Source: Ruminococcus sp. (GTDB lineage Bacteria; Bacillota; Clostridia; Oscillospirales; Acutalibacteraceae). Taken from it: a DNA stretch of 64,000 nt. Every line of letters starts with the position of its first letter. The stretch's first letter is position 1. Below the pieces are notes generated by a model that was not told the origin of the DNA, made no database searches, and was given only the letters and a program-made list of their open reading frames with translations. Of this stretch, positions 30,130-54,942 are shown one piece after another. A program made the translations under genes and the position numbers. The stretch is taken from the NCBI GenBank assembly GCA_017410265.1, contig JAFQRC010000010.1, positions 27,679 to 91,678 on the forward strand, written 5' to 3'.

Positions 30130-33100
30130 TTAGTTGTGATACTTTTCTCCACCCTTTGGTGTTAAGTAACCGACATTACCTGTTGAGTCAAGCGCGTTTA
30201 AGCCGAAGCTGTAGTTCTGATAGTTCTTAATATCAAGAGTAACAGTATTTGTTGTTGTGCTTGTAACTACAGTTTCTTTTCCGCTTTCATCGAAGTATGA
30301 AACCCATGTTTTTGTAGCACCTGTATCTTCCGGCCAAGTGAGAGTTACTGTGTCCTCATCAACAGGAGTGAAGGTGATGAAGTTTTCGTCTGAATACGGC
30401 ATTCTTGTGCCTGCACCGATGTAGTTAACGGTTACCTGTGAGCCTGTTTCCTCGTCATCATACAAAGCTACTACTGAGAAGAAGTAGTACTTGCCTGGTT
30501 CTCTCCACTTGATTGTGTAGGTTGTGTCTGTTGTCGATGACCATGTTGTCCAATTATCAAGATTTGATGTACTCTTTGTAGTTGTTGAGTAAATAACCCA
30601 GTACTTAACAGCATTTTCATATGCAGGCCAGCTGATTGTAGCTGTAGTCGAAGTTACATCTGTGATAACTGTTGTGATGATATCACCCGATGTTGTTGTT
30701 ACCTCGATATCAGGACAAGCATCTTTTTCACCCAATGCTAACAAGCCGTTTGAAAGTATCGCTGGTACAACCTTGAAGTAGTAAGTTGTTTCAGCCTGAA
30801 GATGCTTTACTGTGTAGTTAAGCTCTGTTGTTGAGTCATACACATAGAAAGGACCGTTTTCTTCAAACGCTTTATAAATCCAGTATTTCTGTGCGCCCTC
30901 AACTGCTTCCCATGTAAGCTCTGCTGATGTTGTTGACGGAGTAGCTTTGAGTGTATCTACTACTACAGGTTCTAGTGTTGTAAATTCTACTGCTGTAGCA
31001 TCAGATAATTTCATAGTTGAGCCATCACTTAGTGTAGCTATAACCTTCACCTGATATGTTGTACTACCTAAAAGACTGCCGACAGTTACCTTAGTGGCTG
31101 TAGTTGAAGTATAAACACCCCAGGAATTAGCACTTTCGTTATATTTATATACCCAGTATTTTGTAGCTCCGTCAACTGCATCCCAGGTGAGCACTGCGTT
31201 TGATGCAGCAGGCTCAGCTTTGATGTTTTCTACCTTAGTTGGAGCCACGGTTACTTCTTCGGTTGGAGCCTCTGTTTCTTCAACTGTCTTTGGCTGTACT
31301 GTGAGATAAGTGTAAGACCAGTCTGAGTTTCCGTCAGGGGTGAAGTAAACTGTGCAATCGCCTACTTTGTTTGAGGTTGCTCCGATTTTGTAGGTACTGC
31401 TCGAAAGGTCTTTGTACCAATTTGTGATATCATTGCCGTCAAAGTAAACGACCTTGAGTGCGTCGCCACCGTAGAATGTCCAGTCGAGGGTATAGATACC
31501 GTCATCGCCTAAAGTCAGCATTCTGTCAGACGAATTTTCATCAACAGTCCAGCAGTCTTCCCCGTTGAGTGTACCTACCATGTAGTAGCCTTTCTCAACT
31601 GAAACTGATGTTTCTTTTTCAGTTTCTTCTTCTGTAGGGTCTGTTACTTCCTCTGTCGGATCAGTTTCTGCCTCAGTCGGTTCTTCGGTTTCTTCTTCGG
31701 TTGGCTCTATTGTTTCTTCCTCTGTCGGGTCCTCATCAGGATTGTAGGAAGCTGTGATGTTGTGGTACAGATCACTGTATTCAAAGACAAGTGTAATCTG
31801 GTTTTCTGCGTATTCTACAGATTCTTCAGCCCAACAATCAGCAGATTCTGCGTTGTAGGTCTTGTATTCTGTTGCTTCAACAGGAATCTGAGCTTGATAA
31901 ATATAGAAGGTTTTTTCTTCGTTTGACCAGTAGTCTGAGCCTACTGCGTACTGAGCAGTTTCTCCTGTTGCTGTAAGTGTTGCGTCACCGAATACGCCTT
32001 CGTCATTCCAGTAGTGGAGAGTCGGAAGAAAATCTGTGATGTATTTAACAACACCCACATAAACAGTTTTTGTTTCGCCTGATACAGGAGCAGATGTAGC
32101 CGCTTGAGTCGGAGTTTCAGTCGGGACTTCTATCTCATCAGCGTTATAAACAACGGCGATACCGGTTGAGCCGATGTTGCCTGAAATTTTACCACCTGAA
32201 ACAGTAAAGGTGTTGCCTGAAATCTGGTCTGTGTATGTACCGCTTGCCATTTTGTTAGCGGTAACCGAAACAGAAGTTGAAGAACCGCCGACATTGACTA
32301 AAACAACGCCTGATGTTCCTCTCTCGACGTAGGCGATACTACCTGAGGATGCGAAATATTCACTCTGACCGACAAAGGCGTTCTTGAACTGGTTTATAGC
32401 TTTGACCTCTTTGTCTGCCCACGCTGTTGTGTCAGCGTTACCGAGCATTGTAGAGCCTGAACTTGGACGAGCAAGATACATGCCGCAGACTTCTGCACGC
32501 GAGCCGACAATAGCCCATGTTTTCTTTAAGTTAGTGTCGGATACATAGCTTGAACTACCCTCACAGTAAGTGTCGTGGGATTCGTTCCACTGAACTGTGT
32601 ATTTAGGCGCCGCGCCGTTGTAGATAGCAGAATTAGCCGCACCGCCTGCGTTTCCTGAATTCACGCAGTTACGAATGTCGTTACTTGAAGCGTTGCAGGT
32701 AACGCTCATATACTGTGTATATGCGGACATATCCACTCCGCCTGTGCTATCGAGCATTTCGCCATAGTAGTATGGTGTAAAGCCGTAGGTATCTTCAGCG
32801 TAAGCAGTAGCCGCATTCAAAACATTTGGCCAGAAATCACTGCCCGTGCCATAAGAATCAGATGGTGTTTCGATGTGCTTAGCGGCATCGAATCTAAAGC
32901 CGTCAGCACCGCAGTCGATACATTCTTTTAAGAAGCTTGTAGCGTAGTTCTGGATTTTGCTATAGCCTGTGTTTAAATCAGGAAGACCGCCTAAGCAGTA
33001 GTGAGTAACATCATAGCGGTTTGAATAGTTGCTGATGTTGGTTGTGGTAGAGTGCCAGCAAGAAGAGTCGTTTCTGATATCAGAAGTAATCTGAGATGAC

Positions 33101-36731: not shown

Positions 36732-38543
36732 TTAGTTATGATACTTTTCGCCACCTGCAGGTGTTAAGTATCCGACATTACCTGTTGAGTCAAGTGCGTT
36801 TAAGCCAAAGCTGTAGTTTTCGTAATTTGCGATATCGAGTGTAACTGTATTTGTTGTTGTGCTCTTTAAGATAGTTTCTTTACCGTTTTCATCATAGTAT
36901 GAAGCCCATACTTTTGTTGCACCTGTGTCTTCTGGCCAAGTAAGTGTTACTGTGTCTTCATCTACTGGAGTGAAAGTGATAAAGTTGCTGTCTGAATAAG
37001 GTATTCTTGCGCCGTCAGCTAAGTATTTGACTGTTGCCTGTTGGCCTGTTTCAGCGTCATTGTACAGAGCTACTACTGAGAAGAAATAGTACTTGCCTGG
37101 TTCTCTCCACTTAAATGTGTAAGTTGTATCAGTTGTTTCTGCCCATGTTGTCCAATTATCAAGATTTGTTGTGCTCATTGTAGTTGTTGAGAAAATTACC
37201 CAGTACTTCACAACATTCTCAAACTTCGGCCAGCTGATGGTTGCTGTTGTTGATGTGAGGCTAGTGATTTCTACTGTGATGCTTTCGCCGGTTGCTGTAG
37301 TAGCTTCCAATTTCTGAGCTGCGTCAGCTTCGCCGAGTGATAACAAGCCGTTTGATAAAATAGCAGGGATAACCTTGAAGTAGTAGGTTGTATCCGGCTG
37401 AAGATGTTTTACTGTGTAGTTAAGTTCTGTAGTTGCATCGTATACATAGAAAGGACCATTTTCTTCAAAAGCTTTGTAAATCCAGTACTTCTGCGCGCCT
37501 TCTACTGCATTCCATGAAAGCTTAACTGATGTTACATCGGGTGTAGCCATAAGACCGTCAACCACAACAGGAGCTTTAGTTGTAAATTCTACAACATCTG
37601 CGTCAGAAAGCTTCTGCATTGTACCGTCGGAGAAAGCAGCTATAACCTTAATCTGATATGTTGTATCGCCTACCAAAGTGCCGACTGTAGCTTTGTTAGT
37701 AGTTGAAGAAGTATATGCTACATAATTTCCGTCTTTTTCCTTGTAAATCCAGTATTTTGTTGCACCCTCTACGGCGTCCCAAGTAAGAACAGCTGTTGAT
37801 GATGCAGGATCTACAACGATATTTTCAACCTTAGTTGGTTTAGCAGGAGCGTCAGTTGGTGCTTCTGTTGGTTCCTCTGTAGGTTCCTCTGTTGGCTCCT
37901 CTGTTGGTTCCTCTGTTGGCTCCTCTGTTGGCTCCTCTGTAGGTTCCTCTGTTGGTTTATCTGTTGGTATTTCAGTAGGCTCTTCTGATGCTTCGTATGT
38001 AACATACTCAGCGTAGGTAAAGTCCTTCACAAAAACAGAACCTTCAGGAGTCTTGTCGATGTAATAATCACGGTTTTCACCGCCGAGCTCAATAACTTCT
38101 GTAGCGATGGTGCTCTCACCAGCAGCTAAAACTGTGAATTCAAATATAGCAACAGCCTCTTCGCCGCTGAAGGTGTATGGATTGTTTCTAGTGAAGTTGT
38201 AGAGAATCTCATCCTCTAAATCAAGGTTAACAACAGCAGTACCGCTAACCTTAGGGAAAGTTTCCTCTAAAAATGCATCATAAGCATCTTCGTCATCTTC
38301 GCTGACTTTAGTTACTGCGAGATAATCGCTGTCATAGGTAACCGAAGCCTCCATACACATGGATTTCATATCAGTCAGAGCATAGGTGTAGGTGAAGGTT
38401 TCGCCCACAGGGATGTCAGTTGTAACCCCGTTTACAGTGAGGGAAAGTACATCTGCATCTTCAGCAGAAACAGAAAAACCGAGTCCCATAAAAGCTGACA
38501 TTGTAATGATAAGTGCTAACAGGATAGAAAGTAATTTTTTCAT
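36732..38543 (-). CDS. Putative scaffoldin: signal peptide, one cohesin-like domain, PTEE linker, 4xFN3 tail
   Basis: LTVNGVTTDIPVGETFTYTYAL...ASVTYDSDYL...YNFT...YTFSGEEAVAIFEFTVLAAGESTI resembles Ruminococcus cohesins; start moved to ATG 38543 (GGAGG RBS; TTGACT-17-TATTAT at 38575-38603). Confidence 0.7.
   Translation of the reverse strand: MKKLLSILLALIITMSAFMGLGFSVSAEDADVLSLTVNGVTTDIPVGETFTYTYALTDMKSMCMEASVTYDSDYLAVTKVSEDDEDAYDAFLEETFPKVSGTAVVNLDLEDEILYNFTRNNPYTFSGEEAVAIFEFTVLAAGESTIATEVIELGGENRDYYIDKTPEGSVFVKDFTYAEYVTYEASEEPTEIPTDKPTEEPTEEPTEEPTEEPTEEPTEEPTEEPTEAPTDAPAKPTKVENIVVDPASSTAVLTWDAVEGATKYWIYKEKDGNYVAYTSSTTNKATVGTLVGDTTYQIKVIAAFSDGTMQKLSDADVVEFTTKAPVVVDGLMATPDVTSVKLSWNAVEGAQKYWIYKAFEENGPFYVYDATTELNYTVKHLQPDTTYYFKVIPAILSNGLLSLGEADAAQKLEATTATGESITVEITSLTSTTATISWPKFENVVKYWVIFSTTTMSTTNLDNWTTWAETTDTTYTFKWREPGKYYFFSVVALYNDAETGQQATVKYLADGARIPYSDSNFITFTPVDEDTVTLTWPEDTGATKVWASYYDENGKETILKSTTTNTVTLDIANYENYSFGLNALDSTGNVGYLTPAGGEKYHN
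37853..37985 (-). repeat. Coding 12-bp tandem repeats (PTEE linker)
   Basis: GG(T/C)TCCTCTGT(T/A) units encoding EEPTEEPTEEPT. Confidence 0.9.
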
Positions 38544-45641: not shown

Positions 45642-45670
45642 GCACGCGGACGATTGATAATCGCCCCTAC
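45642..45670 (-). repeat. GTAG-type REP overlapping the TetR stop codon
   Basis: GCACGCGGACGATTGATAATCGCCCCTAC; the TAG of GTAG is the stop at 45667-45669. Confidence 0.8.
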
Positions 45671-46251
45671 AATTTTTCTTTTTTGCCGAACTCTATCATC
45701 TTGTCGATGATGCCCTGGCACAAAACATGGTAGCTATGGACAGCGTCGACAGAAAGATGGTCAAACACTCCTAGCGCATCAAGAGTCGCAAAGCCGTGTG
45801 TAATAACTCGCATAGCGACATACAAATGGTCCATTGTAGCTTTATCTTCGATTCCATATATTTTAAGAATCATATAAATCGGCGCAGTAAATATCTCACG
45901 CGACTGAGCAAACTCAGGGTCATAAATCATATCTTCATCAATCATAAGATAGTAAAGATGCCTATGCTCCTTCAAAAACACTCTGAACGCATCTGCGGAT
46001 TTCAGAGTGACTTCTTCCAAAGGAACTCCTTTTACATACTCCTCGACATGGTCCACATACGCCTTGGCAGCAAGCTTTGCTACCTCTAAAAGAATATCAT
46101 GTTCATTTTTTATATGATTGTACAAGGAAGACGCCTGACAACCCAAGTTAGCAGCCAATGAACGCACAGAAAATTTATCCAGTCCATCTTCGTCAACCAT
46201 CCCAAAAGCAGTTGATATAATCAGTTCTCTTGATAAAGCTTTCTTAGCCAT
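45667..46251 (-). CDS. TetR/AcrR family transcriptional regulator
   Basis: GLDKFSVRSLAANLGCQASSLYNHIKN HTH; C-terminal THGFATL; start ATG 46251; promoter TTGACA-17-TAAACT at 46315-46343. Confidence 0.92.
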   Translation of the reverse strand: MAKKALSRELIISTAFGMVDEDGLDKFSVRSLAANLGCQASSLYNHIKNEHDILLEVAKLAAKAYVDHVEEYVKGVPLEEVTLKSADAFRVFLKEHRHLYYLMIDEDMIYDPEFAQSREIFTAPIYMILKIYGIEDKATMDHLYVAMRVITHGFATLDALGVFDHLSVDAVHSYHVLCQGIIDKMIEFGKKEKL

Positions 46252-46386
46252 TAAATCACCACGAATCTGTTGCTGTTTCAAGACACAGCAACGCATTTAT
46301 TAGATACTATATGTAGTTTAGAACCTACAGCGACCATTGTCAATAATTACCTGTATTTTTCTTAGAAATCACAACTGTTTTCATAC

Positions 46387-46415
46387 AAAAAGCGGGAGCG
46401 TACGGCCCCCGCTTT
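46387..46415 (-). terminator. Intrinsic terminator of CotH gene 1
   Basis: AAAGCGGGAGC-GTACG-GCCCCCGCTTT. Confidence 0.8.
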
Positions 46416-46430
46416 AGTGCGTTTATTAAT

Positions 46431-49400
46431 TTAGACTCCGTTTGCTAAGTAAACCTGAACATTTGTTGCATCCATAATAGATGTTGTTGAGTCAAGGTCA
46501 AAGTCAGAAAGAGCAGTTGCAGTATCTGAAAGCTCTGTCTTTCCAACCAGTGCAAGCTGGATAGTTGTTGAGTCTAATACAGAAACTGTGTTGTCCTCAT
46601 CAGCATCACCCATCTTGTAGATAACACCGTTGAGTGATGTTGTAGCAACGCCAGCATCTGTAGCCTCGTTGTAAACCATATGAGTTGAAGACTTAGTAAA
46701 GTTTCTTACATACTCATCTGCTTCTGTGAGGTCTACTACAACAGAACCGCTGTTCATATTATCTACAGCGAAGTAGTATTCTTTTTCAGATACTACGCTG
46801 GAGATTGTTGTAGTTGCACGCATTGAGTAATCGTTTGTGAACAAGAGTGTAGCGCCTTCACCTTCTTTAACGCTTACAGTAGCCTCATACCAGTAGTACT
46901 GCTGAGTACCTGTCTTATTCTTACCGATAGCGTCGCCACTCTGAGTCATAGTGCACTCTGTGCCGTTTACTGTAACTTTTGGTACATAACGTGAAGAACT
47001 GGATGACTTGAACTTAACTGTGAAGTTAACATCAGGAGCGATGTATCCGTACTCAAATTCCTGTGTATCTGATTTACCTGTAACAGAAGGATCAGCAGTT
47101 GGGAATACTACGATGTAGATTTCGCTCTTTGCACCTTCTTCAAGAGTAACAGCAGCTTCATCTGCAAATGTGAATGTTTTGTACGCATTACCGTCTACAT
47201 AAACTGTGAAGCTTACATCAGCACCGTCAAGTGCCACACCGTCAAGAGTAACAGTAGCAGATGGTTTGATAGAAACCACAGCGTCACTCTGAGATGCTGT
47301 GAATGTTACATCCTCTACGGTATATGAAACTAAAAGTTCCTCGTTGTAGAGGCCACCGCCAGTTGAACTACTCATGTAGTTACGACGGGTCTTGAGCCAG
47401 TCGTTTAAGTAGTAGACAGTGTTAGCGTAGCACTTAGAAGCACTGCCCGATGTACCTGTGTTACCTACCATGAAGTCACATGAGTATGGTTCGTAGTCAG
47501 AAGTAACCTTTGTACCCCAATCATCACCAGTGAAAGTATATGAACCCCAGCGAGCGTTGTTCATATCTACAGCTGATTCAAACGCAGGCATCCAAGTGTC
47601 GATGATGACACCCTCGTCATTTTCATCGTCTTTGATGTAATTGAAGAGCAGACCGGACATCTGGTTAGTCCAGATACGCTGACACTCTGTCCAGAACGCG
47701 TCGTTGTGTGCAAGCTTAGCCTGGAGGTTATAGTTGCTTTCTTTTGTATAGTCATCAGAGTCAGTTTGCAAAGCCTTTTGCTTAACAAACATCTGTGTAT
47801 TAGGACTGGACATGTTAACACTGTTTTCAACAGAAGAACCGTTGTAGATAAACTTGAGGTCCTTAGCGTAAGCACCGAATGCCCAGTCGTAGTCCCATAC
47901 AGGACCTGCAACGAGAATACTCTCACCGTTTCTGAACTCGTTGTGGATATAGTAAGATGTTGCACAAGAGTCTAGGTTCATAGAAAGCTCCTGAATGAGG
48001 TACATCTTAGCAAATGACTCAACGTCGATAAGCTGACCGATTTCGTTGAGGTCTTCCTCACCGCTTGCGTAAACAGCCTGCTCCATAGTAGCGTACTGAG
48101 TAATAATCCATTTCATTTCTTCCTGTGTAGCAAACTCAGGATATTTAACAACTACTGCCTGACCCTTAGGGGTTACAAACCATGAAGCCTCAGCCTCGTA
48201 TCTGTTAAAGAGCTCGTGCTCGAGGAGATAGTTGTACTCAGTATCAAAGTCTTCAGGTGAATTGAAAGGAAGGTCGTTAACAGCTGCAACAACATTACCG
48301 TTTTCATCTTTATATTCAGGACGATCGTATGTAGCGTAGTATTTATAATTATATGTCTGACCGCCTACTGTCATAGTAGTTTCAGTACCATCGTCAAGGT
48401 CATCTGTATCGAACTCATAGAGGAATTCTTCGTCATCAGGGTCAGTGCCAGGAACGAAAACAGAGTTAGCGAGCACATTACCGTCGTCGAGGTTGTTCAT
48501 ATCATTCATAAGTGTTGATCCGCCGTACTCGACCTTTTCTGTGATTACATAAGCACCGAGGTACTTACCGTTATCATATGCGTCAACGAGGAGAGTCTCA
48601 GGACCATAGCTAAGACCTAAGTCATCAGCGAGCTGATATGCAAAGGTGTTACGCATCATTGAGTGGTCAACGTTGTTAGCAAGTAAGCACCACTTCTTTG
48701 ATTCTGTTGAACCTTCGATAAGGTCATCTTTCTTGTCGAGGTTGAAGTTGTAGGCATACTTACCATAGATTCTCATAGAAGCCTCAAACGAAGAGTTACC
48801 TCTACCCTTGATCTTCTTGAGTGTTGTTCCGCCTGATTTATTGTTTACAAGATCACCGTTTGGCTTAAAGAGATAAATTGAACCCTTTGTTTCAATTGCG
48901 TCCTTATAGACACCGTTGTAGTTAGTTGATGTTATACCACTGCCACTTGGCCAAGCGTTTGAGCCCTGAAGACCTGCTGTTGTGCCTGTGAAGAGCTCTT
49001 CTTTAGTGGTCATAAGCAGGGCAGATGTGCCTGTTGTCTGGTAAATATTAATGTCTGGCTTATTTGTAATTGTAGAGCCGTCTTTGAACCAGAATGTTTT
49101 TGTTCCTGTTGAAAGGTTAGCTTTGCTACCGCTTGCATATTCAGTACCGCCGATAACAACCTTTTCGTGGTCTGTATATACTGTAACATTAGACAAATCT
49201 ACATAAGATGGAACGAAGAGGTCAAAAGTAGTACCGTTGTAGTATACTTTTACAGCATGCTCTGGGTTACCCTCGCCCTTTGTATCAATCCAAAGGTCGT
49301 CCCAGAAGTTTTCTATATCATCAGGGTCAGCAGCGTTTACTGTAGAAGCTGCCTGCCATGAGCCTGCGCCAGTATTTGTAGCCTTGTAAACAGTGTTAGT

Positions 49401-50495
49401 ATCACGATTTGATGCTGTCCAAGTGCCCCAGTTACAGCTGGTAACATTAGTTTCATCTACGTAATAAGAAGCACGATAGAAGGTGTAGGAAGTGTTGGCT
49501 GCAACTTCTGCAGTCCACATAACATGACCGCCAACTGTGTCGACAGTTTCGTCCATCTTGACAATCTCGTTGCCGTCGTTAATGAAAATATTAGCATCGT
49601 CAGAATATAAGTGCCAACTTGCATAATCTAAAAAGCTGATTACAACTTTCTGTGATGGGTCAACAGGATCATCAGGGTCAGTAGAAGACGAGTAATCCGT
49701 AAGCTGGTTGTGGTATGTTCCACCCCATTCAAACACGATAAGGATTTTTCCATCTGTGATTGCTTGTGTTGGACTACCATAGTTGGAATCAACATATGTC
49801 TGGTAGTTAGTAGCCTCTACCGGAATATCAGCTTTGTAAACATTGAAAGTCTGAGCTGCATTATTCCAATAAGATGAGCCTACTGCATGACTGACAGTAT
49901 CACCTGTTGAAGTAAGGGTAACATAACCGTCAAGACCATCATTGTTATAATAATGAATCTGTTTATCACTTGCATTATTCAAGTATGAAATAACACCAAC
50001 ATAAACAGTCTTCTTTTCACCTGAAAGAGGTGTGTACGATGACCATGTGCCATCACCATTACTCCAAGCGCCCTCTGAAACTGTGTAGAGGTTTTGGGAA
50101 CCGTCCCATGTAAGGTCATTTGTCTGATCCCATTTGTTGTTCCAGTCGTTTGTAGCATTTGCACCATTCATACGACACCAGATGATGTTAGCGTGTGATT
50201 CGCCGGAGCTAACAGTAATACTGTATATACCATCGCCGTCGCCATCAGAAGCTGAATACCACTTAGCTGCACTTGAGCCGTTACACAAGTAAGCCGCAAA
50301 ACGAGCGCCATCTGCTTTCCAGTTGTTGTTTGGCTTCAAGTATAAAGTGGTACCGCCAGTAATAGTCGCACCTGTCTGAGCTACGTCAGTTTCGGCAGCA
50401 GCAGTGTTTATGAAGGCTACTGTGCACATAGATACGAGCATGATGAGTGCGAGTATCATAGAAACTGTGGATTTGCAAAATCTGATTGTTTTCAT
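46431..50495 (-). CDS. Secreted CotH-family kinase 1 with three N-terminal CBM-like modules and a C-terminal dockerin
   Basis: Signal peptide; KIKGRGNSS, KKWCLLAN, MMRN, YLGAYVITEKVE, ELSMNLD and GPVWDYDWAFG; dockerin GDADEDNTVSVLDSTTIQL...SDFDLDSTTSIMDATNVQV. Confidence 0.88.
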   Translation of the reverse strand: MKTIRFCKSTVSMILALIMLVSMCTVAFINTAAAETDVAQTGATITGGTTLYLKPNNNWKADGARFAAYLCNGSSAAKWYSASDGDGDGIYSITVSSGESHANIIWCRMNGANATNDWNNKWDQTNDLTWDGSQNLYTVSEGAWSNGDGTWSSYTPLSGEKKTVYVGVISYLNNASDKQIHYYNNDGLDGYVTLTSTGDTVSHAVGSSYWNNAAQTFNVYKADIPVEATNYQTYVDSNYGSPTQAITDGKILIVFEWGGTYHNQLTDYSSSTDPDDPVDPSQKVVISFLDYASWHLYSDDANIFINDGNEIVKMDETVDTVGGHVMWTAEVAANTSYTFYRASYYVDETNVTSCNWGTWTASNRDTNTVYKATNTGAGSWQAASTVNAADPDDIENFWDDLWIDTKGEGNPEHAVKVYYNGTTFDLFVPSYVDLSNVTVYTDHEKVVIGGTEYASGSKANLSTGTKTFWFKDGSTITNKPDINIYQTTGTSALLMTTKEELFTGTTAGLQGSNAWPSGSGITSTNYNGVYKDAIETKGSIYLFKPNGDLVNNKSGGTTLKKIKGRGNSSFEASMRIYGKYAYNFNLDKKDDLIEGSTESKKWCLLANNVDHSMMRNTFAYQLADDLGLSYGPETLLVDAYDNGKYLGAYVITEKVEYGGSTLMNDMNNLDDGNVLANSVFVPGTDPDDEEFLYEFDTDDLDDGTETTMTVGGQTYNYKYYATYDRPEYKDENGNVVAAVNDLPFNSPEDFDTEYNYLLEHELFNRYEAEASWFVTPKGQAVVVKYPEFATQEEMKWIITQYATMEQAVYASGEEDLNEIGQLIDVESFAKMYLIQELSMNLDSCATSYYIHNEFRNGESILVAGPVWDYDWAFGAYAKDLKFIYNGSSVENSVNMSSPNTQMFVKQKALQTDSDDYTKESNYNLQAKLAHNDAFWTECQRIWTNQMSGLLFNYIKDDENDEGVIIDTWMPAFESAVDMNNARWGSYTFTGDDWGTKVTSDYEPYSCDFMVGNTGTSGSASKCYANTVYYLNDWLKTRRNYMSSSTGGGLYNEELLVSYTVEDVTFTASQSDAVVSIKPSATVTLDGVALDGADVSFTVYVDGNAYKTFTFADEAAVTLEEGAKSEIYIVVFPTADPSVTGKSDTQEFEYGYIAPDVNFTVKFKSSSSSRYVPKVTVNGTECTMTQSGDAIGKNKTGTQQYYWYEATVSVKEGEGATLLFTNDYSMRATTTISSVVSEKEYYFAVDNMNSGSVVVDLTEADEYVRNFTKSSTHMVYNEATDAGVATTSLNGVIYKMGDADEDNTVSVLDSTTIQLALVGKTELSDTATALSDFDLDSTTSIMDATNVQVYLANGV

Positions 50496-50497
50496 TA

Positions 50498-50687
50498 TAT
50501 CTCCTCCTACGAAGTATAAAATACGGGTTGAAATCGCTCATTATTAAACGAACAGCGTTCGTTTCCCTAAAAAGCATATATGCCCCGCAAGCTAAGACTC
50601 ACAAGGGCAGGTAATATCACTTTTTCGATTTAACAAATGAGCATTTCATAAGATATTTCAGGTTACACCAACCCAATATCTATTATC
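50498..50687 (-). ncRNA. Candidate structured 5' leader RNA, copy A
   Basis: Between TTGACT-17-TATAAT (50694-50722) and the SD; four stems equivalent to those in copy B. Confidence 0.55.
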
Positions 50688-50822
50688 GGTTACATTATAC
50701 CAAATAGCTATTTTTTAGTCAATAGATTTGTTAAATTTATCTATATTCGCCTATCTAGCGCATAGCTCATAATATCTGCACTACTGCTTGTGGTTTTTGG
50801 TGTTGCACCGCTGTTTTGACAC

Positions 50823-50851
50823 AAAAAAGCGGGAGCTGTACAGCCCCCGCC
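50823..50851 (-). terminator. Intrinsic terminator of CotH gene 2
   Basis: AAAGCGGGAGC-TGTACA-GCCCCCGCCT; flank duplicated from 46387-46440. Confidence 0.8.
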
Positions 50852-50868
50852 TAAGTGCGTTTATTAAT

Positions 50869-53800
50869 TTAAACTCCGCTTGCTAAGTAAATCTGGATAT
50901 CTGTTGCATCCATGATAGATGTTACTAAATCAAGATTGAAATCAGAAAGGTCAGTTGCAGTGTCAGAAAGCACCGTCTTTCCAACCAGTGCAAGCTGGAT
51001 AGTTGTTGCGTCAAGAATTGATACTTCGCCGTCCTCGTCAACATCACCCATTTTGTAGATAGCACCATTGATAACTGTTGTAGCAACACCTGATACTTCA
51101 GGGTCGTTAGTAATCATATTTGCTTCTGACTTAGTAAAGTTTCTTACATACTCCTTCGCATCTGTAAGCTCAACAGCCACTGTGCCGTCGTTTAAGTTAT
51201 CAACACCGAAGTAGTATGCTTTGCCTGCTTCTACTGCTGAGATTTCAGCACCTGCGCTCATTGCTAAAGCATTTGTGAACAAGAGTGTCGCACTCTCGCC
51301 TTTCTTAACGCTAACTGTAGCCTCATACCAGTAGTATGACTGTGTGCCGGTTTCGTTTGTGCCGATAATATCCCCGCTCTGAGTCATTACATACTCTGTG
51401 CCGTTTACAGTAACGGTAGGTACATAGCGGTAAGCGTCCGTTGCTTTGAACATAACTGTGAATTCGACATCAGGGATATACTCAAATTCCTGAACGTCTG
51501 ATGTATCTGTAACAGAAGTATCAGCTGTCGGGAATACCACGATGTAAATTTCGCTCTTTACACCCTCAGCGAGAGTAACAGTAGCGTTTGTTGTGAAGTC
51601 GTATGTGCCAACAGCCTCACCGTCCACATAAACTGTGTAGCTTACTTCTTCACCGCTTAATGCTGTGTCATTGAGAGTAACTGTAGCAGATGGTGTGATG
51701 GTAACCTCAGCGTCACTCAAAACTGCTGTGAAAGAAGCATCTGATACAGCATATTTTTTCAGAAGCTCTGCGTTGTAAAGATTACCGCCGTTTTTGTCGC
51801 TCATGTAGTTTCTACGCATCTTGAGCCAGTCGTTTAAGTAGTAGACAGTGTTAGCGTAGCACTTAGAAGCACTGCCCGATGTGCCTGTGTTACCTCTGCT
51901 GAAGGAATATGAGTAAGGTGTATAGTCAGAAGTAACCTTTGTACCCCAGTTATCGCCAGTGAATGTGTATGAACCCCAACGAGCATCGTTCATATCAACA
52001 GATGACTGAAACTTTGGCAACCATTCATCAATAATGATACCCTGGTCATTTGCATCGTCTTTGATGTAATTGAAGAGCAACTCTGCCATCTGGTTAGTCC
52101 AGATGCGCTGACACTCTGTCCAGAATAAAGAGTTCTGTGCAAGCTTAGCCTGGAGGTTGTAATTAGCAGATTTTGTGTTGTCACCGGTGTCTGTCTTAAG
52201 AGCCTTTTGTTTTACGAACATCTGCTCATAGTTAGACATATTTGCGCTATCAGTAACAGATGAGCCGTTGTAGATGAACTTTGTGCCACCTGCGTAAGCG
52301 CCGAATGCCCAGTCATAGTCCCATACAGGGCCTGCTACAAGAATGCTCTTTCCATCTCTGAACTCGTTGTGGATATAGTAAGATGTTGCGCAGGAGTCAA
52401 GGTTGATTGAAAGCTCCTGAATGAGGTACATCTTAGCAAAAGAATCTACATCAATAAGCTGTGAATATGTAGCATAGTCGTTGTTATAAACAGCCTGCTC
52501 CATAGTTGCGTACTGTGTGATAATCCATTCCATTTCTGCCTGTGTAGCAAACTCAGGATATTTAACAACTACTGCCTGACCCTTTGGAGTTACGAACCAA
52601 GAAGCCTCAGCCTCGTATCTGTTAAAGAGCTCGTGCTCGAGGAGATAGTTGTACTCAGTATCAAAGTTTTCAGGTGAATTGAAAGGAAGGTTAGATGCAG
52701 CCTCTACTAATACTTCACCTGTTTCTTCGTTAGTAACCTCAGGTCTGTCATATGTAGCGTAATACTTGTACTTATATGTCTGACCATTAACTTTGAAGTC
52801 GTTTTTAACGATACCGTCATCGAGGTCGTCTGTATCAAACTCATAGAGGAATTGTTCGTCATCAGGGTCAGTGCCAGGAACGAAAACAGAGTTAGCGAGC
52901 ACATTACCATCGTCGAGGTTTTCCATATCGTCCATAAGTGTTGATCCGCCGTACTCAACCTTTTCTGTGATAACAAAAGCGCCGAGGTACTTACCGTTAT
53001 CATAAGCGTCGACAAGTCGTGTTTCAGGACTATAGCTGAGTCCTAAGTCATCAGCGAGCTGATAAACAAAGGTGTTACGCATCATTGAGTGGTCAACGTT
53101 GTTAGCAAGTAAGCACCACTTCTTTGACTTCTCTGCGCCATCGATAAGGGCAACCTTCTTATCAAGGTTGAAGTTGTAAGCATACTTACCGTAAATTCTC
53201 ATAGAAGCCTCAAAGGATGAGTTACCTCTACCCTTAATCTTCTTTAAGACTTGTTTTTCTGCAGTATCTGTAATAAGCTCGCCATCTTCACTATACATGA
53301 AGATAGAACCCTTTGTTTCAATAGCGTCTTTGTAAACACCATTGTAGTTAGTTGATGTAATACCACTGCCACTTGGCCATGCGTTTGAGTTCATAAGACC
53401 AGCTGTTGTGCCTGTAAAGAGCTCTTCTTTAGTGGTCATCATAAGAGCTGCTGTTGACTTTGTCTGGTAAATAGTGATGTTACCCTTGTTAGTAGTTGTA
53501 GAGCCGTCTTTGAAAGCGAAAGTCTTTGTACCTGTTGAAAGGTTAGCTTTGCTACCGCTTGCGTACTCTGTGCCACCGATAACAACCTTTTCGTGGTCTG
53601 AGTAAACTGTTACATCTGAAAGGTTTACATAAGATGGAACATAAAGGTGGAATGTTGAGCCTGTGTAGTAAACCTTGATTGCCAGTTTTGTGTTGCCATC
53701 CCCTGTTGTATCAATCCAGAGATCATCCCAGAAGTTTTCTATATCATCAGGGTCAGCAGCGTTTACTGTAGACGAAGCAGCCCACGAACCAATACCGCTG

Positions 53801-54594
53801 TCTGTAGCCTTGTAAACAGTGTTAGAACCGCGGGAAGAAGCAGTCCAGCTGTTCCAATAGCCACTTGATGCATTAGACTCATCGAAGTAGTAAGATGTAC
53901 GATAGAAGGTATATGATGAACGAGCCGAAACCTCCGCTGTCCACATTGCATGACCTGACTTAGTATCAACTGTTTCATCCATCTGGGTAACTGTTGAACC
54001 TGACTTGATGAACATCTTAGCGTCATCTGATGCTACCCATTTTGTATCAGAATTTATAAGGAAGCTGATAGTAACTTTTTCAGCAGGGTCATCAGGATCT
54101 TCTGACGGGTCAGTTGTGCCACCTGATGGTGTGTAAGATGACCATGTGCCACCACCATTACTCCAAGCGCCCTCTGAAACTGTGTAGAGGTTTTTGGAAC
54201 CGTCCCATGTAAGGTCATTTGTCTGGTTCCATCTGTTGTTCCAGTCGTTGGTAGTATTACCACCATTCATACGACACCAGATGATGTTAGCATGTGATTC
54301 ACCGGAATTGACGGTTACCCAGTAATAGCCGTCATCGTTTGGACCATATGCCGAATACCAGTGAGCAGAACTGGAGCCGTTACAGAAATATGCCGCAAAG
54401 CGAGCTCCGTCTTTTTTCCAGTTTTCATTCGGTGACAGATAAAAAGTTGTGCCACCTGTGATAGTCGCGCCGGTATCTGCTACGTCAACCTCTGCAGCAG
54501 CAGTGTTTAGGAAGGCTACCGTGCACATAGATACGAGCATAATCAGTGCGAGTATCATAGAAACTGTGGATTTGCAGAATCTTTTCGTTTTCAT
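50869..54594 (-). CDS. Secreted CotH-family kinase 2 with two N-terminal CBM-like modules and a C-terminal dockerin
   Basis: Paralog of 46431-50495 with the same kinase motifs; lacks the second module; dockerin GDVDEDGEVSILDATTIQL. Confidence 0.88.
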   Translation of the reverse strand: MKTKRFCKSTVSMILALIMLVSMCTVAFLNTAAAEVDVADTGATITGGTTFYLSPNENWKKDGARFAAYFCNGSSSAHWYSAYGPNDDGYYWVTVNSGESHANIIWCRMNGGNTTNDWNNRWNQTNDLTWDGSKNLYTVSEGAWSNGGGTWSSYTPSGGTTDPSEDPDDPAEKVTISFLINSDTKWVASDDAKMFIKSGSTVTQMDETVDTKSGHAMWTAEVSARSSYTFYRTSYYFDESNASSGYWNSWTASSRGSNTVYKATDSGIGSWAASSTVNAADPDDIENFWDDLWIDTTGDGNTKLAIKVYYTGSTFHLYVPSYVNLSDVTVYSDHEKVVIGGTEYASGSKANLSTGTKTFAFKDGSTTTNKGNITIYQTKSTAALMMTTKEELFTGTTAGLMNSNAWPSGSGITSTNYNGVYKDAIETKGSIFMYSEDGELITDTAEKQVLKKIKGRGNSSFEASMRIYGKYAYNFNLDKKVALIDGAEKSKKWCLLANNVDHSMMRNTFVYQLADDLGLSYSPETRLVDAYDNGKYLGAFVITEKVEYGGSTLMDDMENLDDGNVLANSVFVPGTDPDDEQFLYEFDTDDLDDGIVKNDFKVNGQTYKYKYYATYDRPEVTNEETGEVLVEAASNLPFNSPENFDTEYNYLLEHELFNRYEAEASWFVTPKGQAVVVKYPEFATQAEMEWIITQYATMEQAVYNNDYATYSQLIDVDSFAKMYLIQELSINLDSCATSYYIHNEFRDGKSILVAGPVWDYDWAFGAYAGGTKFIYNGSSVTDSANMSNYEQMFVKQKALKTDTGDNTKSANYNLQAKLAQNSLFWTECQRIWTNQMAELLFNYIKDDANDQGIIIDEWLPKFQSSVDMNDARWGSYTFTGDNWGTKVTSDYTPYSYSFSRGNTGTSGSASKCYANTVYYLNDWLKMRRNYMSDKNGGNLYNAELLKKYAVSDASFTAVLSDAEVTITPSATVTLNDTALSGEEVSYTVYVDGEAVGTYDFTTNATVTLAEGVKSEIYIVVFPTADTSVTDTSDVQEFEYIPDVEFTVMFKATDAYRYVPTVTVNGTEYVMTQSGDIIGTNETGTQSYYWYEATVSVKKGESATLLFTNALAMSAGAEISAVEAGKAYYFGVDNLNDGTVAVELTDAKEYVRNFTKSEANMITNDPEVSGVATTVINGAIYKMGDVDEDGEVSILDATTIQLALVGKTVLSDTATDLSDFNLDLVTSIMDATDIQIYLASGV

Positions 54595-54596
54595 TA

Positions 54597-54780
54597 TATC
54601 TCCTCCTACGAGTATAAATTACAGTCTAAAATGCCCGATCGCTAAACAAAGAGCGTTCATTTTGATGAAAGCACCTACCCGTGCGTATTTCACACAGGTG
54701 AAAAATATGTCGTTTCTTTCACAAACAAAAGAGCATTTTGTACTAGTGATACAGGTTACCCAAACCATATATCTATTCAA
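54597..54780 (-). ncRNA. Candidate structured 5' leader RNA, copy B
   Basis: Between TTGACT-17-TATAAT (54786-54814) and the SD; stems covary with copy A. Confidence 0.55.
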
Positions 54781-54942
54781 AGTAAATTATACCAACCTGT
54801 AAAACCCCAGTCAATATAATTTACGAATATATTCAGCCTCTTTTTTGTGCTGATAAATTACTCACTGTAACTAAAGGTCAGAAAACCTTGCACTGTGACG
54901 ATAATAAAAACGGGTGCACCGTACTGATGCACCCGAAATATT

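Follow-up and report, generated by a model that had tools for sequence, protein, structure and literature searches.

The question raised by this locus is what kinases of the CotH family, predicted to be secreted and equipped with carbohydrate-binding-like modules and dockerins, might be doing in an uncultured starch-degrading gut Ruminococcus. Two such genes lie in tandem on the reverse strand of the stretch of DNA analyzed here (64,000 nt; GCA_017410265.1, JAFQRC010000010.1), which is called the window and to which all coordinates refer. CotH1 (46431..50495, (-)) is an intact ORF of 1354 aa that combines a CBM26-like module, a CotH kinase and a dockerin, and its paralog CotH2 (50869..54594, (-)) is an intact ORF of 1241 aa. 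Both were found exactly where the first-pass annotation had placed them, and all motifs it had quoted were recovered (RGNSS, KWCLLAN, NLD, WDYDWAFG and LYLKPNNNWKADGARFAAY..IIWCRM..NDWNNKWDQTNDL). The two proteins are 82% identical over residues 1-159 and 74% identical over the other 1103 residues, and the 113-aa difference in length results from module B, which is present in CotH1 only. About 25 full-length orthologues of CotH1 were identified. Purifying selection acts on both paralogs (dN/dS 0.21, dS 0.8 for the pair), with dN/dS of 0.1-0.3 in every module of each.

Both proteins begin, as annotated, with a Sec-type signal peptide, recognized by inspection of the translation from its basic n-region, hydrophobic core and AAA|E site; that of CotH1 (50394..50495, (-), residues 1-34) is kept in the orthologue consensus. 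Each paralog is flanked by a strong promoter-like site and a terminator of its own. The site of CotH1 (50694..50722, (-)) reads TTGACT-17-TATAAT with an extended -10 TG, the site of CotH2 (54786..54814, (-)) has identical hexamers, and each is followed by a leader of ~190 nt; the two leaders align with each other. A GC-rich hairpin terminator, near-identical in the two genes, is located at 50827..50852 (-) for CotH2, where it is of the intrinsic type, and at 46387..46414 (-) for CotH1, by inspection 3' of the stop codon. The same terminator family had been ascribed to amylase 2, but neither such an element nor any terminator-like site is present after that gene.

The identification of CotH-family kinases with intact catalytic residues was borne out by family, fold and residue conservation. 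The kinase cores of CotH1 (47466..48809, (-), residues 563-1010) and CotH2 (51880..53235, (-), residues ~454-905) score 85.9 and 80.7 bits, respectively, against Pfam CotH (PF08757; cut-off 23.8). In CotH1, region D (48816..49310, (-), residues 396-560), for which no Pfam or profile match was obtained, is modeled as a beta-rich part packed on the kinase (AF2 pLDDT >90 over most of it; pLDDT 90.4 and pTM 0.91 for D plus kinase). The only significant PDB matches of this combined model are B. cereus CotH structures 5jda/5jd9 (Foldseek prob 1.00, E 1e-8; TM 0.57, normalized to the target). The roles of the catalytic Asp (D228 in B. subtilis) and the metal-binding Asp (D251) of CotH were described previously (PMC7821199). 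By transitive alignment via the genome's canonical CotH to B. cereus CotH, NFD224 corresponds to NLD842 and WD247YD to WD868YD870, equal to B. subtilis D228/D251; the catalytic and metal-binding residues of CotH1 are thus D842 (47970-47972, (-)) and D868 (47892-47894, (-)). K579, NLD(842) and WD(868)xD(870) are all invariant among 24 full-length orthologues, and in a wider set of 68 sequences K579 and D868 are invariant, with N840, D842 and D870 conserved in at least 90%. From these residues and the modeled fold, we infer that CotH1 and CotH2 are catalytically competent kinases.

Two to three modules had been counted before the kinase, correctly, with A, B and C in CotH1 and A and C in CotH2; their description as CBM26-like held for module A only. 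Module A (CotH1, 50028..50351, (-), residues 49-156; CotH2, 54133..54450, (-), residues 49-154, HMM E 1e-45) has no Pfam CBM26 match even at E 10 and falls below every Pfam CBM threshold, and its relation to CBM26 is seen at the profile-profile level only (hhalign 96.3%, E 1.5e-9, two insertions). Structural analysis of the CotH1 module (AF2, pLDDT ~96) indicated a CBM25/26-type beta-sandwich fold, the best single-domain Foldseek matches being CBM25 2lab (prob 0.99, TM 0.50 to target) and CBM41 2j71 (prob 0.97), with CBM25 2laa at prob 0.87. In the alignment with CBM26, two stacking residues, Tyr (Y69) and Trp (W79, of WPG), are retained along with the QT motif, and the canonical Y-x-W pair lacks its second aromatic (Cys/Phe-shifted). 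Judged by profile and predicted fold, module A is genuinely related to CBM26, though divergent. It also occurs in proteins with GH13, CBM26, CBM48 and X25, one of them a GH13-CBM26-A amylase encoded in this genome, and its association with GH13, CBM26 and CBM48 proteins suggests that it may bind alpha-glucan.

Module B (49677..50027, (-), residues 157-273 of CotH1) is an accessory module common to amylase 1, being 43% identical to Amy1 residues 491-610, and its 109 representative relatives co-occur with CBM26, CBM25, GH13, CotH and dockerin. It shows no CBM25/26 relation: profile comparison with CBM26 found none, and its AF2 model (pLDDT below 50) yielded no fold. Module C (CotH1, 49320..49655, (-), residues 281-392; CotH2, 53746..54081, (-), residues 172-283; AF2 pLDDT 73-95) is a family-specific, degenerate relative of module A (hhalign 86%, E 5e-6) in which the Trp platform is not conserved, and in the closest orthologues it always stands immediately N-terminal to the kinase.

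Behind the kinase, both proteins carry Ig-like modules; those of CotH1 are the C-terminal beta-sandwich modules E and F (46626..47378, (-), residues ~1040-1290), which gave weak sub-threshold Pfam hints (Cadherin-like, DUF5979) and in profile comparison no relation to CBM26 or to modules A, B or C. A stand-alone copy of E/F with a dockerin is present on contig C2. The C-terminal dockerins (CotH1, 46440..46619, (-), residues 1293-1352; CotH2, 50878..51057, (-), residues 1180-1239) proved real. That of CotH1 has two DxDxDxxxxxxD calcium-binding loops, each followed by a helix (DADEDNTVSVLD...IQLAL and DFDLDSTTSIMD...VQVYL), and the pattern recurs in CotH2. Pfam Dockerin_1 scores of 16.2, 21.3 and 22.0 bits lie just below the 22.9 cut-off; the family profile matches the R. 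bromii Amy16 dockerin (PDB 9qf9, E 1.2e-6) and, weakly, the classical dockerins 4fl4/2ccl/1ohz, and a dockerin HMM trained on this genome gives 73 bits. The dockerins had been assigned to the type of the amylase dockerin, an assignment that did not survive: identity is 34-36%, and among the genome's 84 dockerin ORFs the CotH dockerins group in a small clade of their own. As a distinct subtype, they may have a cohesin partner other than that of the amylases.

The link of these kinases to starch turned out stronger than the first-pass annotation could see. In the window, the neighborhood includes GH13-dockerin-CBM26, GH13-FN3, GlgP and MalQ, and the amylase cluster is 10 kb away. The genome encodes 17 GH13 ORFs and 22 CBM26 ORFs in addition to the dockerin ORFs, several of them GH13-dockerin proteins; with dockerin-bearing GH13 amylases and Pfam cohesin matches (only three, and weak), the organism is of the amylosome type. 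In Ruminococcus MAGs from the herbivore gut, the CotH clade shows repeated fusion to CBM26, CBM48, X25, module A or B, and dockerin. Some orthologues have a true CBM26 in place of module A, other members continue from CotH into one to four CBM26 modules plus CBM48/X25, and once a single ORF reads GH13-CotH-CBM26-CBM48. In relatives, the neighboring genes encode a scaffoldin (cohesin-CBM26-X25) and giant surface proteins with CBM26, and the related loci come mostly from herbivore hindguts. Among 151 sampled genomes, CBM26 and strong CotH matches tend to occur together (7 of 10 genomes vs 11 of 141, p 1e-5, in statistics that ignore phylogenetic non-independence). These fusions and the genome-level co-occurrence strongly support the targeting of CotH1 and CotH2 to starch, and on sequence evidence this is a conserved CotH clade of amylolytic Ruminococcus that resemble R. 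bromii and inhabit animal hindguts. In a second pair of CotH-dockerin proteins from the same genome no starch module was detectable, so the CotH-dockerin combination as such is not starch-specific.

Based on these results, the answer that we favor, with modest confidence, is that CotH1 and CotH2 are secreted, catalytically competent phosphotransferases held at the interface of starch and cell surface by the dockerin and N-terminal modules, where they phosphorylate proteins. The dockerin would plug them into a cohesin scaffold of the organism's very large dockerin system, and module A, aided by the degenerate module C and, in CotH1, by module B, would bring them onto alpha-glucan. Since fusions of the kinase core to starch-binding modules have arisen many times, the substrate of the core is expected on or at the starch granule or the amylosome. 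In the least certain step, the kinase, with ATP and Mg or Mn, would phosphorylate Ser/Thr of granule-surface or amylosome proteins; candidate substrates are amylosome components, the kinase itself and granule-associated proteins, by comparison with spore-coat CotH acting on CotB/CotG. An extracellular kinase needs extracellular ATP, an objection that holds just as much for CotH in cellulosomes. Also counting against this reading are the genome's lack of a CotB/CotG-like substrate and the distinct dockerin subtype.

The main alternative to protein phosphorylation is that the glucan itself is phosphorylated directly. The CotH core would phosphorylate surface glucose of crystalline or resistant starch, disrupt helix packing and open the granule to docked amylases, as glucan, water dikinase does inside plant plastids. 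The fusions follow the logic of carbohydrate-active enzymes, with CBM26/CBM48/X25 arrays and once GH13 in the kinase polypeptide, protein partners could be reached by the dockerin alone, and a genome search for a CotB/CotG-like Ser/Lys/Arg-repeat substrate found none encoded. Sugar phosphorylation by kinase-like folds has precedents in the xylose kinase Fam20B and in POMK, a kinase-fold enzyme that acts on mannose. A distant relationship of CotH to the secretory-pathway kinases of the Fam20 group (PMC7821199) also favors a sugar substrate. However, all characterized CotH proteins are protein Ser kinases, and no sugar-binding site was identified within the kinase core. Moreover, the cellulosomal and fungal CotH-dockerins occur without a CBM for their polysaccharide, ATP spent outside the cell is costly and would need a supply, and starch phosphate esters hinder rather than help many amylases, which leaves phosphorylation of the glucan unlikely. 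Quite unlikely, too, is the stronger claim that these are the first extracellular polysaccharide kinases, in which amylosome-docked, CBM26-targeted CotH phosphorylates the glucose of resistant starch and so loosens it for amylases. If true, this would give plant glucan, water dikinase an extracellular analogue in bacteria, and modification of their own polysaccharides by cellulosomal CotH proteins might follow by extension.

It is also conceivable that phosphotransfer is irrelevant outside the cell, and that the CotH domain is a structural or adhesive module of a surface complex or an ATP/nucleotide-binding sensor. The CotH invasins of Mucorales, which act through host-receptor binding, offer a parallel; ATP access is poor at an extracellular location, a structural contribution to the assembly of the complex is one proposal made for the CotH proteins of cellulosomes, and the core is surrounded by large family-specific insertions and extra beta-sandwich domains. 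Against this, little or no variation is seen in the Lys/Gly-rich KGRGN motif, the catalytic Asp and the metal-binding Asp among at least 68 sequences, some as low as 23% in identity, and the dN/dS of the kinase core is 0.175. Such conservation of an active site is unexpected for a pure scaffold, and a non-kinase role is improbable.

A spore role, in which CotH1 and CotH2 would phosphorylate spore-surface proteins and the starch modules would merely fasten spores, or cells that are sporulating, to particles of starch, agrees with sporulation in R. bromii and its relatives (PMC5814915) and with CotH being classically a spore-coat morphogenetic kinase (PMC7821199), but it is highly improbable, as a Sec signal peptide with a dockerin suggests proteins exported by vegetative cells, unlike spore-coat CotH, which works in the cytoplasm of the mother cell, the neighbors and fusion partners are amylolytic and include no sporulation genes, the promoter-like sites are sigma-70-type and not evidently sigma-K (weak evidence), and the genome's separate 464-aa CotH, which has an N-terminal hydrophobic segment and is much nearer canonical CotH (Pfam E 2.6e-60), could serve any spore function.

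The favored reading, secreted CotH kinases acting on proteins at the starch surface, can be set against several known systems. The plant enzymes GWD/PWD (CBM45/CBM20) resemble it by analogy only, in placing at the granule surface an ATP-dependent phosphotransferase that is joined to a starch-binding module. They are unrelated in fold and mechanism, being PPDK-like dikinases with a phospho-His intermediate, and no Pfam, PDB or fold match to this dikinase domain was found in CotH1 or CotH2; unlike the window CotHs, which are predicted to be secreted, they are intracellular. Fam20 kinases (the protein kinase Fam20C and Fam20B) share a kinase-like fold and action outside the cytoplasm, but they are eukaryotic Golgi enzymes with lumenal ATP, and Foldseek gave no significant structural match to them from the D-plus-kinase model. 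B. subtilis and B. cereus CotH (5JD9, 5JDA) share the fold, the Pfam family and the catalytic and metal-binding Asp, though 5JD9 was not reached by profile search from the window CotH sequences. The Bacillus proteins, of ~360 aa, lack signal peptide, CBM and dockerin, and phosphorylate Ser-rich repeats of CotB/CotG in the mother cell; the window core, unlike theirs, has insertions of ~100 aa.

The R. bromii amylosome (Amy4/9/10/12/16, Sca1-5, Sas6, Sas20) likewise combines GH13 amylases bearing dockerin and CBM26 with cohesin scaffoldins and starch-adherence proteins, and Amy2 of the window carries Amy16-like CBM26s (E 3e-39 to PDB 9qf9). Unlike this genome of an uncultured relative and its far larger set of dockerin ORFs, R. 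bromii L2-63 has 26 described dockerin proteins that include no CotH. The first-pass annotation had regarded a function of this kind as undescribed, which stands for the starch-linked version, as no paper was found that joins CotH with CBM26 fusions or the amylosome; CotH-dockerin proteins in general are well known in cellulosomes. CseP/Cthe_0044 and Cthe_0239 of C. thermocellum and their counterparts in R. flavefaciens, R. champanellensis, R. cellulolyticum and anaerobic-fungal cellulosomes are secreted and built into a cohesin-dockerin complex, each having a signal peptide as well as a CotH kinase domain and dockerin; structural or regulatory roles were proposed for them in the literature. 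With relatives that repeatedly fuse this kinase to proven starch-binding modules, the long-unexplained presence of CotH in polysaccharide-degrading complexes becomes testable on starch. Unlike its cellulosomal counterparts, the window clade belongs to a starch-degrading, amylosome-type organism and combines alpha-glucan modules (A and B here; CBM26, CBM48, X25 and once GH13 in relatives) with modules C and D, both specific to the family, and a large kinase insertion.

The two tandem secreted CotH-type kinase/dockerin genes, CotH1 and CotH2, lie on contig C10 of a 1.97-Mb assembly (97% complete, 17 contigs) and are intact open reading frames on the minus strand, exactly where the first-pass annotation had placed them: CotH1 at 46431-50495 (1354 aa) and CotH2 at 50869-54594 (1241 aa). 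They are tandem paralogs with 82% identity over residues 1-159 and 74% over the other 1103 residues (CotH1 numbering throughout), and the 113-aa gap in length corresponds to module B (residues 157-273), which is present in CotH1 only. The dN/dS ratio is 0.21 overall and 0.11-0.31 per module, with a dS of about 0.8 (Nei-Gojobori), which indicates an old duplication with both copies maintained under purifying selection. Both genes are preceded by a near-consensus promoter-like site of their own, TTGACT-17-TATAAT with an extended -10 (TG in front), and the hexamers, identical in the two genes, are followed by a 5' leader of about 190 nt; these promoter/leader regions occupy 50496-50730 (minus) for CotH1 and 54595-54822 (minus) for CotH2. 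The leaders are 81% identical, with perfectly conserved blocks and an identical ribosome-binding region, and matched no known RNA family in Rfam; they could be a cis-regulatory RNA or merely duplicated sequence. Each gene ends in a GC-rich hairpin terminator; the likeness of the two terminators stems from duplication of the flanks together with the genes. The earlier description was largely confirmed, except that the terminator said to be common to the CotH genes and amylase 2, a GH13 amylase of the window, was wrong: no similar element, and no terminator-like site, follows amylase 2. A TetR-family regulator gene with its own promoter-like site lies directly downstream of CotH1 (45667-46296, minus).

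Residues 1-34 were recognized by inspection as a signal peptide (KxxRxxK, hydrophobic core, AAA|E), and both proteins are predicted to be exported. The CotH domain was detected by Pfam with 86 bits in CotH1 and 81 bits in CotH2 (cut-off 23.8), and an NCBIfam search gave no match. The whole protein and its N-terminal region found no match among PDB sequences (phmmer), and CotH 5JD9 was not reached by sequence with a 24-sequence family profile; therefore, the active-site residues were mapped via the canonical 464-aa CotH of the genome and a fold search. The AlphaFold2 model of residues 396-1040 (68-sequence alignment) has a pLDDT of 90.4 and a pTM of 0.91, and with the kinase core plus the adjacent beta-rich region (module D) as query, B. 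cereus CotH (5JDA/5JD9) gave the only significant PDB matches (prob 1.00, E 1e-8). It was reported that D228Q and D251A inactivate B. subtilis CotH (PMC7821199). Alignment of the canonical CotH to 5JD9 placed these residues at NFD224 and WD247YD of the B. cereus protein, which are NLD842 and WD868YD870 in CotH1. Both motifs, K579 and the KGRGN motif are invariant across 24 full-length orthologues; among 68 sequences with identity down to 23%, K579, KGRGN and D868 show no variation, and at least 90% of the sequences retain N840, D842 and D870. The active site, catalytic and metal-binding aspartates included, is thus intact, as had been read from the motifs, and CotH1 and CotH2 would be capable of phosphotransfer. 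The strict conservation of the catalytic residues makes it improbable that the CotH domain plays a non-catalytic role.

The N-terminal modules had been described as CBM26-like, which holds for module A, applies to module C in a degenerate form, and fails for module B. Module A (residues 49-156) has no sequence match in Pfam or PDB. Its profile (130 copies) was aligned by hhalign with a profile of the 39 CBM26 domains of the genome (96.3%, E 1.5e-9) over all 64 CBM26 columns, with two insertions. Module A retains the Tyr, the QT motif and the Trp of 'WPG', but not the second aromatic residue of the Y-x-W pair. The best single-domain Foldseek matches of its AlphaFold2 model (pLDDT ~96) were CBM25 2LAB (prob 0.99), CBM41 2J71 (0.97) and the CBM41-bearing pullulanase SpuA. 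Based on these hhalign and Foldseek results, module A can be regarded as a divergent CBM26-like module, though it does not reach the threshold of the CBM26 family. A relationship to A was also found for module C (residues 281-392; hhalign 86%, E 5e-6), which is more degenerate and has no Trp platform; both are of CBM26 ancestry. Elsewhere in the genome, module A is part of a GH13-CBM26-A amylase and of three more proteins. CotH1 and CotH2 are predicted to bind starch.

Module B is unrelated to A or CBM26 by profile, and its AlphaFold2 model was unusable (pLDDT <50). It shares 43% identity with a module of amylase 1, another GH13 amylase of the window; the two copies lie at 49677-50027 (minus) in CotH1 and 31726-32094 (minus) in amylase 1. 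Its relatives comprise 109 representatives (50% clustering) among 1.84 billion proteins, most of them belonging to CBM26/CBM25/GH13/dockerin proteins, and the families beside it in the 54 representatives scanned were CBM26 (16), dockerin (5), CotH (4), CBM25 (3), GH13 (2) and CBM48-type (1). Judged by these partners, module B is a starch-system accessory module; its small, uncharacterised family is a candidate new starch-associated module and possibly a new CBM family. When searched in isolation, modules A, B, C and D gave nothing meaningful in Pfam, and hhalign found no relation of B, D and the C-terminal beta-sandwiches E and F to CBM26, A or C, so those four modules are not called CBM-like; D, E and F showed no relation to B either.

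The C-terminal 60 residues contain two DxDxDxxxxxxD loops of the Ca type, each followed by a helix. Their Pfam dockerin score of 16-22 bits is just below the threshold of 22.9, the CotH family profile matches the R. bromii Amy16 dockerin in PDB 9QF9 (E 1.2e-6) and classical dockerins weakly, and a genome-trained dockerin HMM gives 73 bits. By these signatures the C-terminus of CotH1 and CotH2 is a genuine dockerin, as annotated, and would dock the kinases onto a cohesin. The assignment to the amylase type did not stand, since the CotH1 and CotH2 dockerins are only 34-36% identical to that of amylase 2 and, among the 84 dockerins of the genome compared, form a clade of their own with a stand-alone copy on contig C2; they may bind a different cohesin than the amylases do. 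Pfam detected only three cohesins in the genome, all of them weak matches, against 84 dockerin ORFs, which implies that most cohesins are too divergent for the Pfam model. The 84 dockerin-bearing ORFs of this 1.97-Mb genome compare with a reported 26 in R. bromii L2-63, a roughly threefold difference. The stand-alone copy is a 255-aa ORF outside the window (C2:179707-180474, minus) that represents the CotH1 C-terminus (E/F and dockerin), with 71% identity to CotH1 over 291 aa (tblastn) and a 92% identical dockerin; a kinase and an evident signal peptide are both missing, and the ORF could be either what is left of a third paralog or a dockerin protein in its own right.

With HMMs built for this analysis, 17 GH13 ORFs and 22 CBM26-bearing ORFs were counted along with the 84 dockerin ORFs, and by this gene content the host is a specialised amylolytic Ruminococcus-type organism. 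Among the genes of the window are those for glycogen phosphorylase, MalQ, a PT/FN3 protein, a GH13-FN3 amylase and a GH13-dockerin-2xCBM26 amylase; the CBM26s of the last gave a match to R. bromii Amy16 (E 3e-39). A C-terminal FN3-repeat tail of ~370 aa (30130-31243 and 36732-37839, both minus) is common to amylase 1 and the PT/FN3 protein, with 75% identity. There are five CotH genes in all. Two further secreted CotH-dockerin proteins, of 1109 and 670 aa, are encoded in tandem on contig C14 (67259-72617, plus), and no starch module was detected in them; an A-like N-terminus suspected by eye was rejected, as the hhalign probability was only 5%. The near-canonical CotH of 464 aa, whose N-terminus includes a hydrophobic segment, is encoded at C15:3278-4672 (minus). 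A search of the genome for CotB/CotG-like Ser/Lys/Arg-repeat substrates yielded none that was convincing.

The homologue search returned ~25 full-length orthologues, and in eight of these CotH is fused to a genuine, Pfam-detected CBM26. Across 185,579 species genomes, 386 relatives were found; the best 78 loci all belong to uncultured Ruminococcus or Oscillospiraceae-type MAGs, mostly from the hindgut of roe deer, goat, sheep, cattle, horse, reindeer and rabbit. According to the HMMs of this analysis, the architectures of the clade include CBM26-C-kinase-dockerin, A-C-kinase-dockerin, B-CBM26-B-C-kinase-dockerin, A-kinase-(CBM26)2-4, kinase-CBM26-dockerin and, in a single ORF, GH13-kinase-CBM26. 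Curated Pfam models confirmed six representatives: GH13, CotH, CBM26 and CBM48/X25 in L067, CotH with 4xCBM26, CBM48 and X25 in L059, CBM26 and CotH in L008 and L016, and CotH and CBM26 in L074 and L060. None of the six has a dockerin by Pfam, and dockerins in relatives were therefore assigned from the genome-trained HMM. The amylase-kinase fusion (L067:7310-12615, plus; Ruminococcus sp. MAG JAZSLX010000106.1) is one open frame of at least 1768 aa, which exits the locus end and encodes a GH13 alpha-amylase, a CotH kinase, modules of the CBM26, CBM48/AMPK and X25-like types, and Listeria-Bacteroides repeats.

The neighbours and the genomic distribution of the clade were also analyzed. A cohesin-CBM26-X25 scaffoldin lies directly upstream of the CotH gene in L014, and in other relatives conserved giant Listeria-Bacteroides-repeat/CBM26 surface proteins are followed by an LRR-dockerin protein. 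A conserved three-gene order occurs in L036, L037, L040, L044, L050-L052 and L054 (Pfam was run on the L036 proteins only): an (A-)CotH-dockerin gene, for which no module A was detected in L040 or L050; 30-40 nt downstream, a gene for a ~2,400-2,600-aa surface protein with Listeria-Bacteroides repeats and CBM26; and the LRR-dockerin gene, before which the L052 contig ends. The taxonomic family was sampled evenly (151 genomes, 150 genera): the CotH type was present in 28, CBM26 in 18 and both in nine (odds ratio 6, p 0.001, phylogeny ignored). Of the genomes with strong full-length CotH matches, 7/10 have CBM26 vs 11/141 others (p 1e-5, phylogeny ignored).

The recurrent covalent fusions are the strongest evidence that the kinase may work on or at alpha-glucan; overall, the proposed starch targeting gains strong support and is extended. 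These covalent ties would locate what the kinase acts on at the granule or amylosome. Since every characterised CotH is a protein Ser kinase, a protein acceptor there is the likelier one: a starch-targeted kinase docked on the scaffold would phosphorylate a protein at the granule or amylosome. The CotH core might instead phosphorylate the glucan directly, as the CAZyme-like fusion logic, with its GH13 fusion, would suggest, and Fam20-like folds include sugar kinases; this is doubtful in view of the ATP cost and of the fact that no sugar site was identified. A spore-coat role is very unlikely for proteins that carry a signal peptide and a dockerin and have amylolytic partners. We consider the targeting and architecture of the two proteins well supported, and the full statement, that they are starch-targeted, scaffold-docked active kinases, somewhat better than evenly balanced; the starch- or amylosome-phosphorylating role is a hypothesis that is now well posed.

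A protein substrate would mean that a polysaccharide-degrading complex is phosphoregulated outside the cell; a glucan substrate would amount to a new enzymatic principle against resistant starch, which bears on gut-microbiome nutrition and starch processing. The clade is found in relatives of R. bromii, the keystone resistant-starch degrader, and ties the kinase core covalently to the well-understood CBM26, CBM48 and X25, and once to a GH13 amylase. It offers an easy experimental system, with soluble and granular starch, defined CBMs and known Asp residues of the active site to mutate.

CotH-dockerin proteins are already known in the cellulosomes of C. thermocellum (CseP/Cthe_0044 and Cthe_0239), R. 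flavefaciens, R. champanellensis, R. cellulolyticum and anaerobic fungi. These bacterial and fungal proteins have been catalogued for about twenty years and their role was never assigned; a 2025 review regarded it as unclear and suggested a structural or regulatory one. The papers on the R. bromii L2-63 amylosome describe 26 dockerin proteins, five dockerin amylases being conserved across strains, and do not mention CotH, and our literature search found no relevant paper pairing CotH with the amylosome, R. bromii (dockerins) or CBM26. The clade described here shares the CotH-dockerin theme with the cellulosomal proteins and differs from them in what, judging from its domain composition, is new: the theme has been carried over into a starch system and fused to modules that bind starch.
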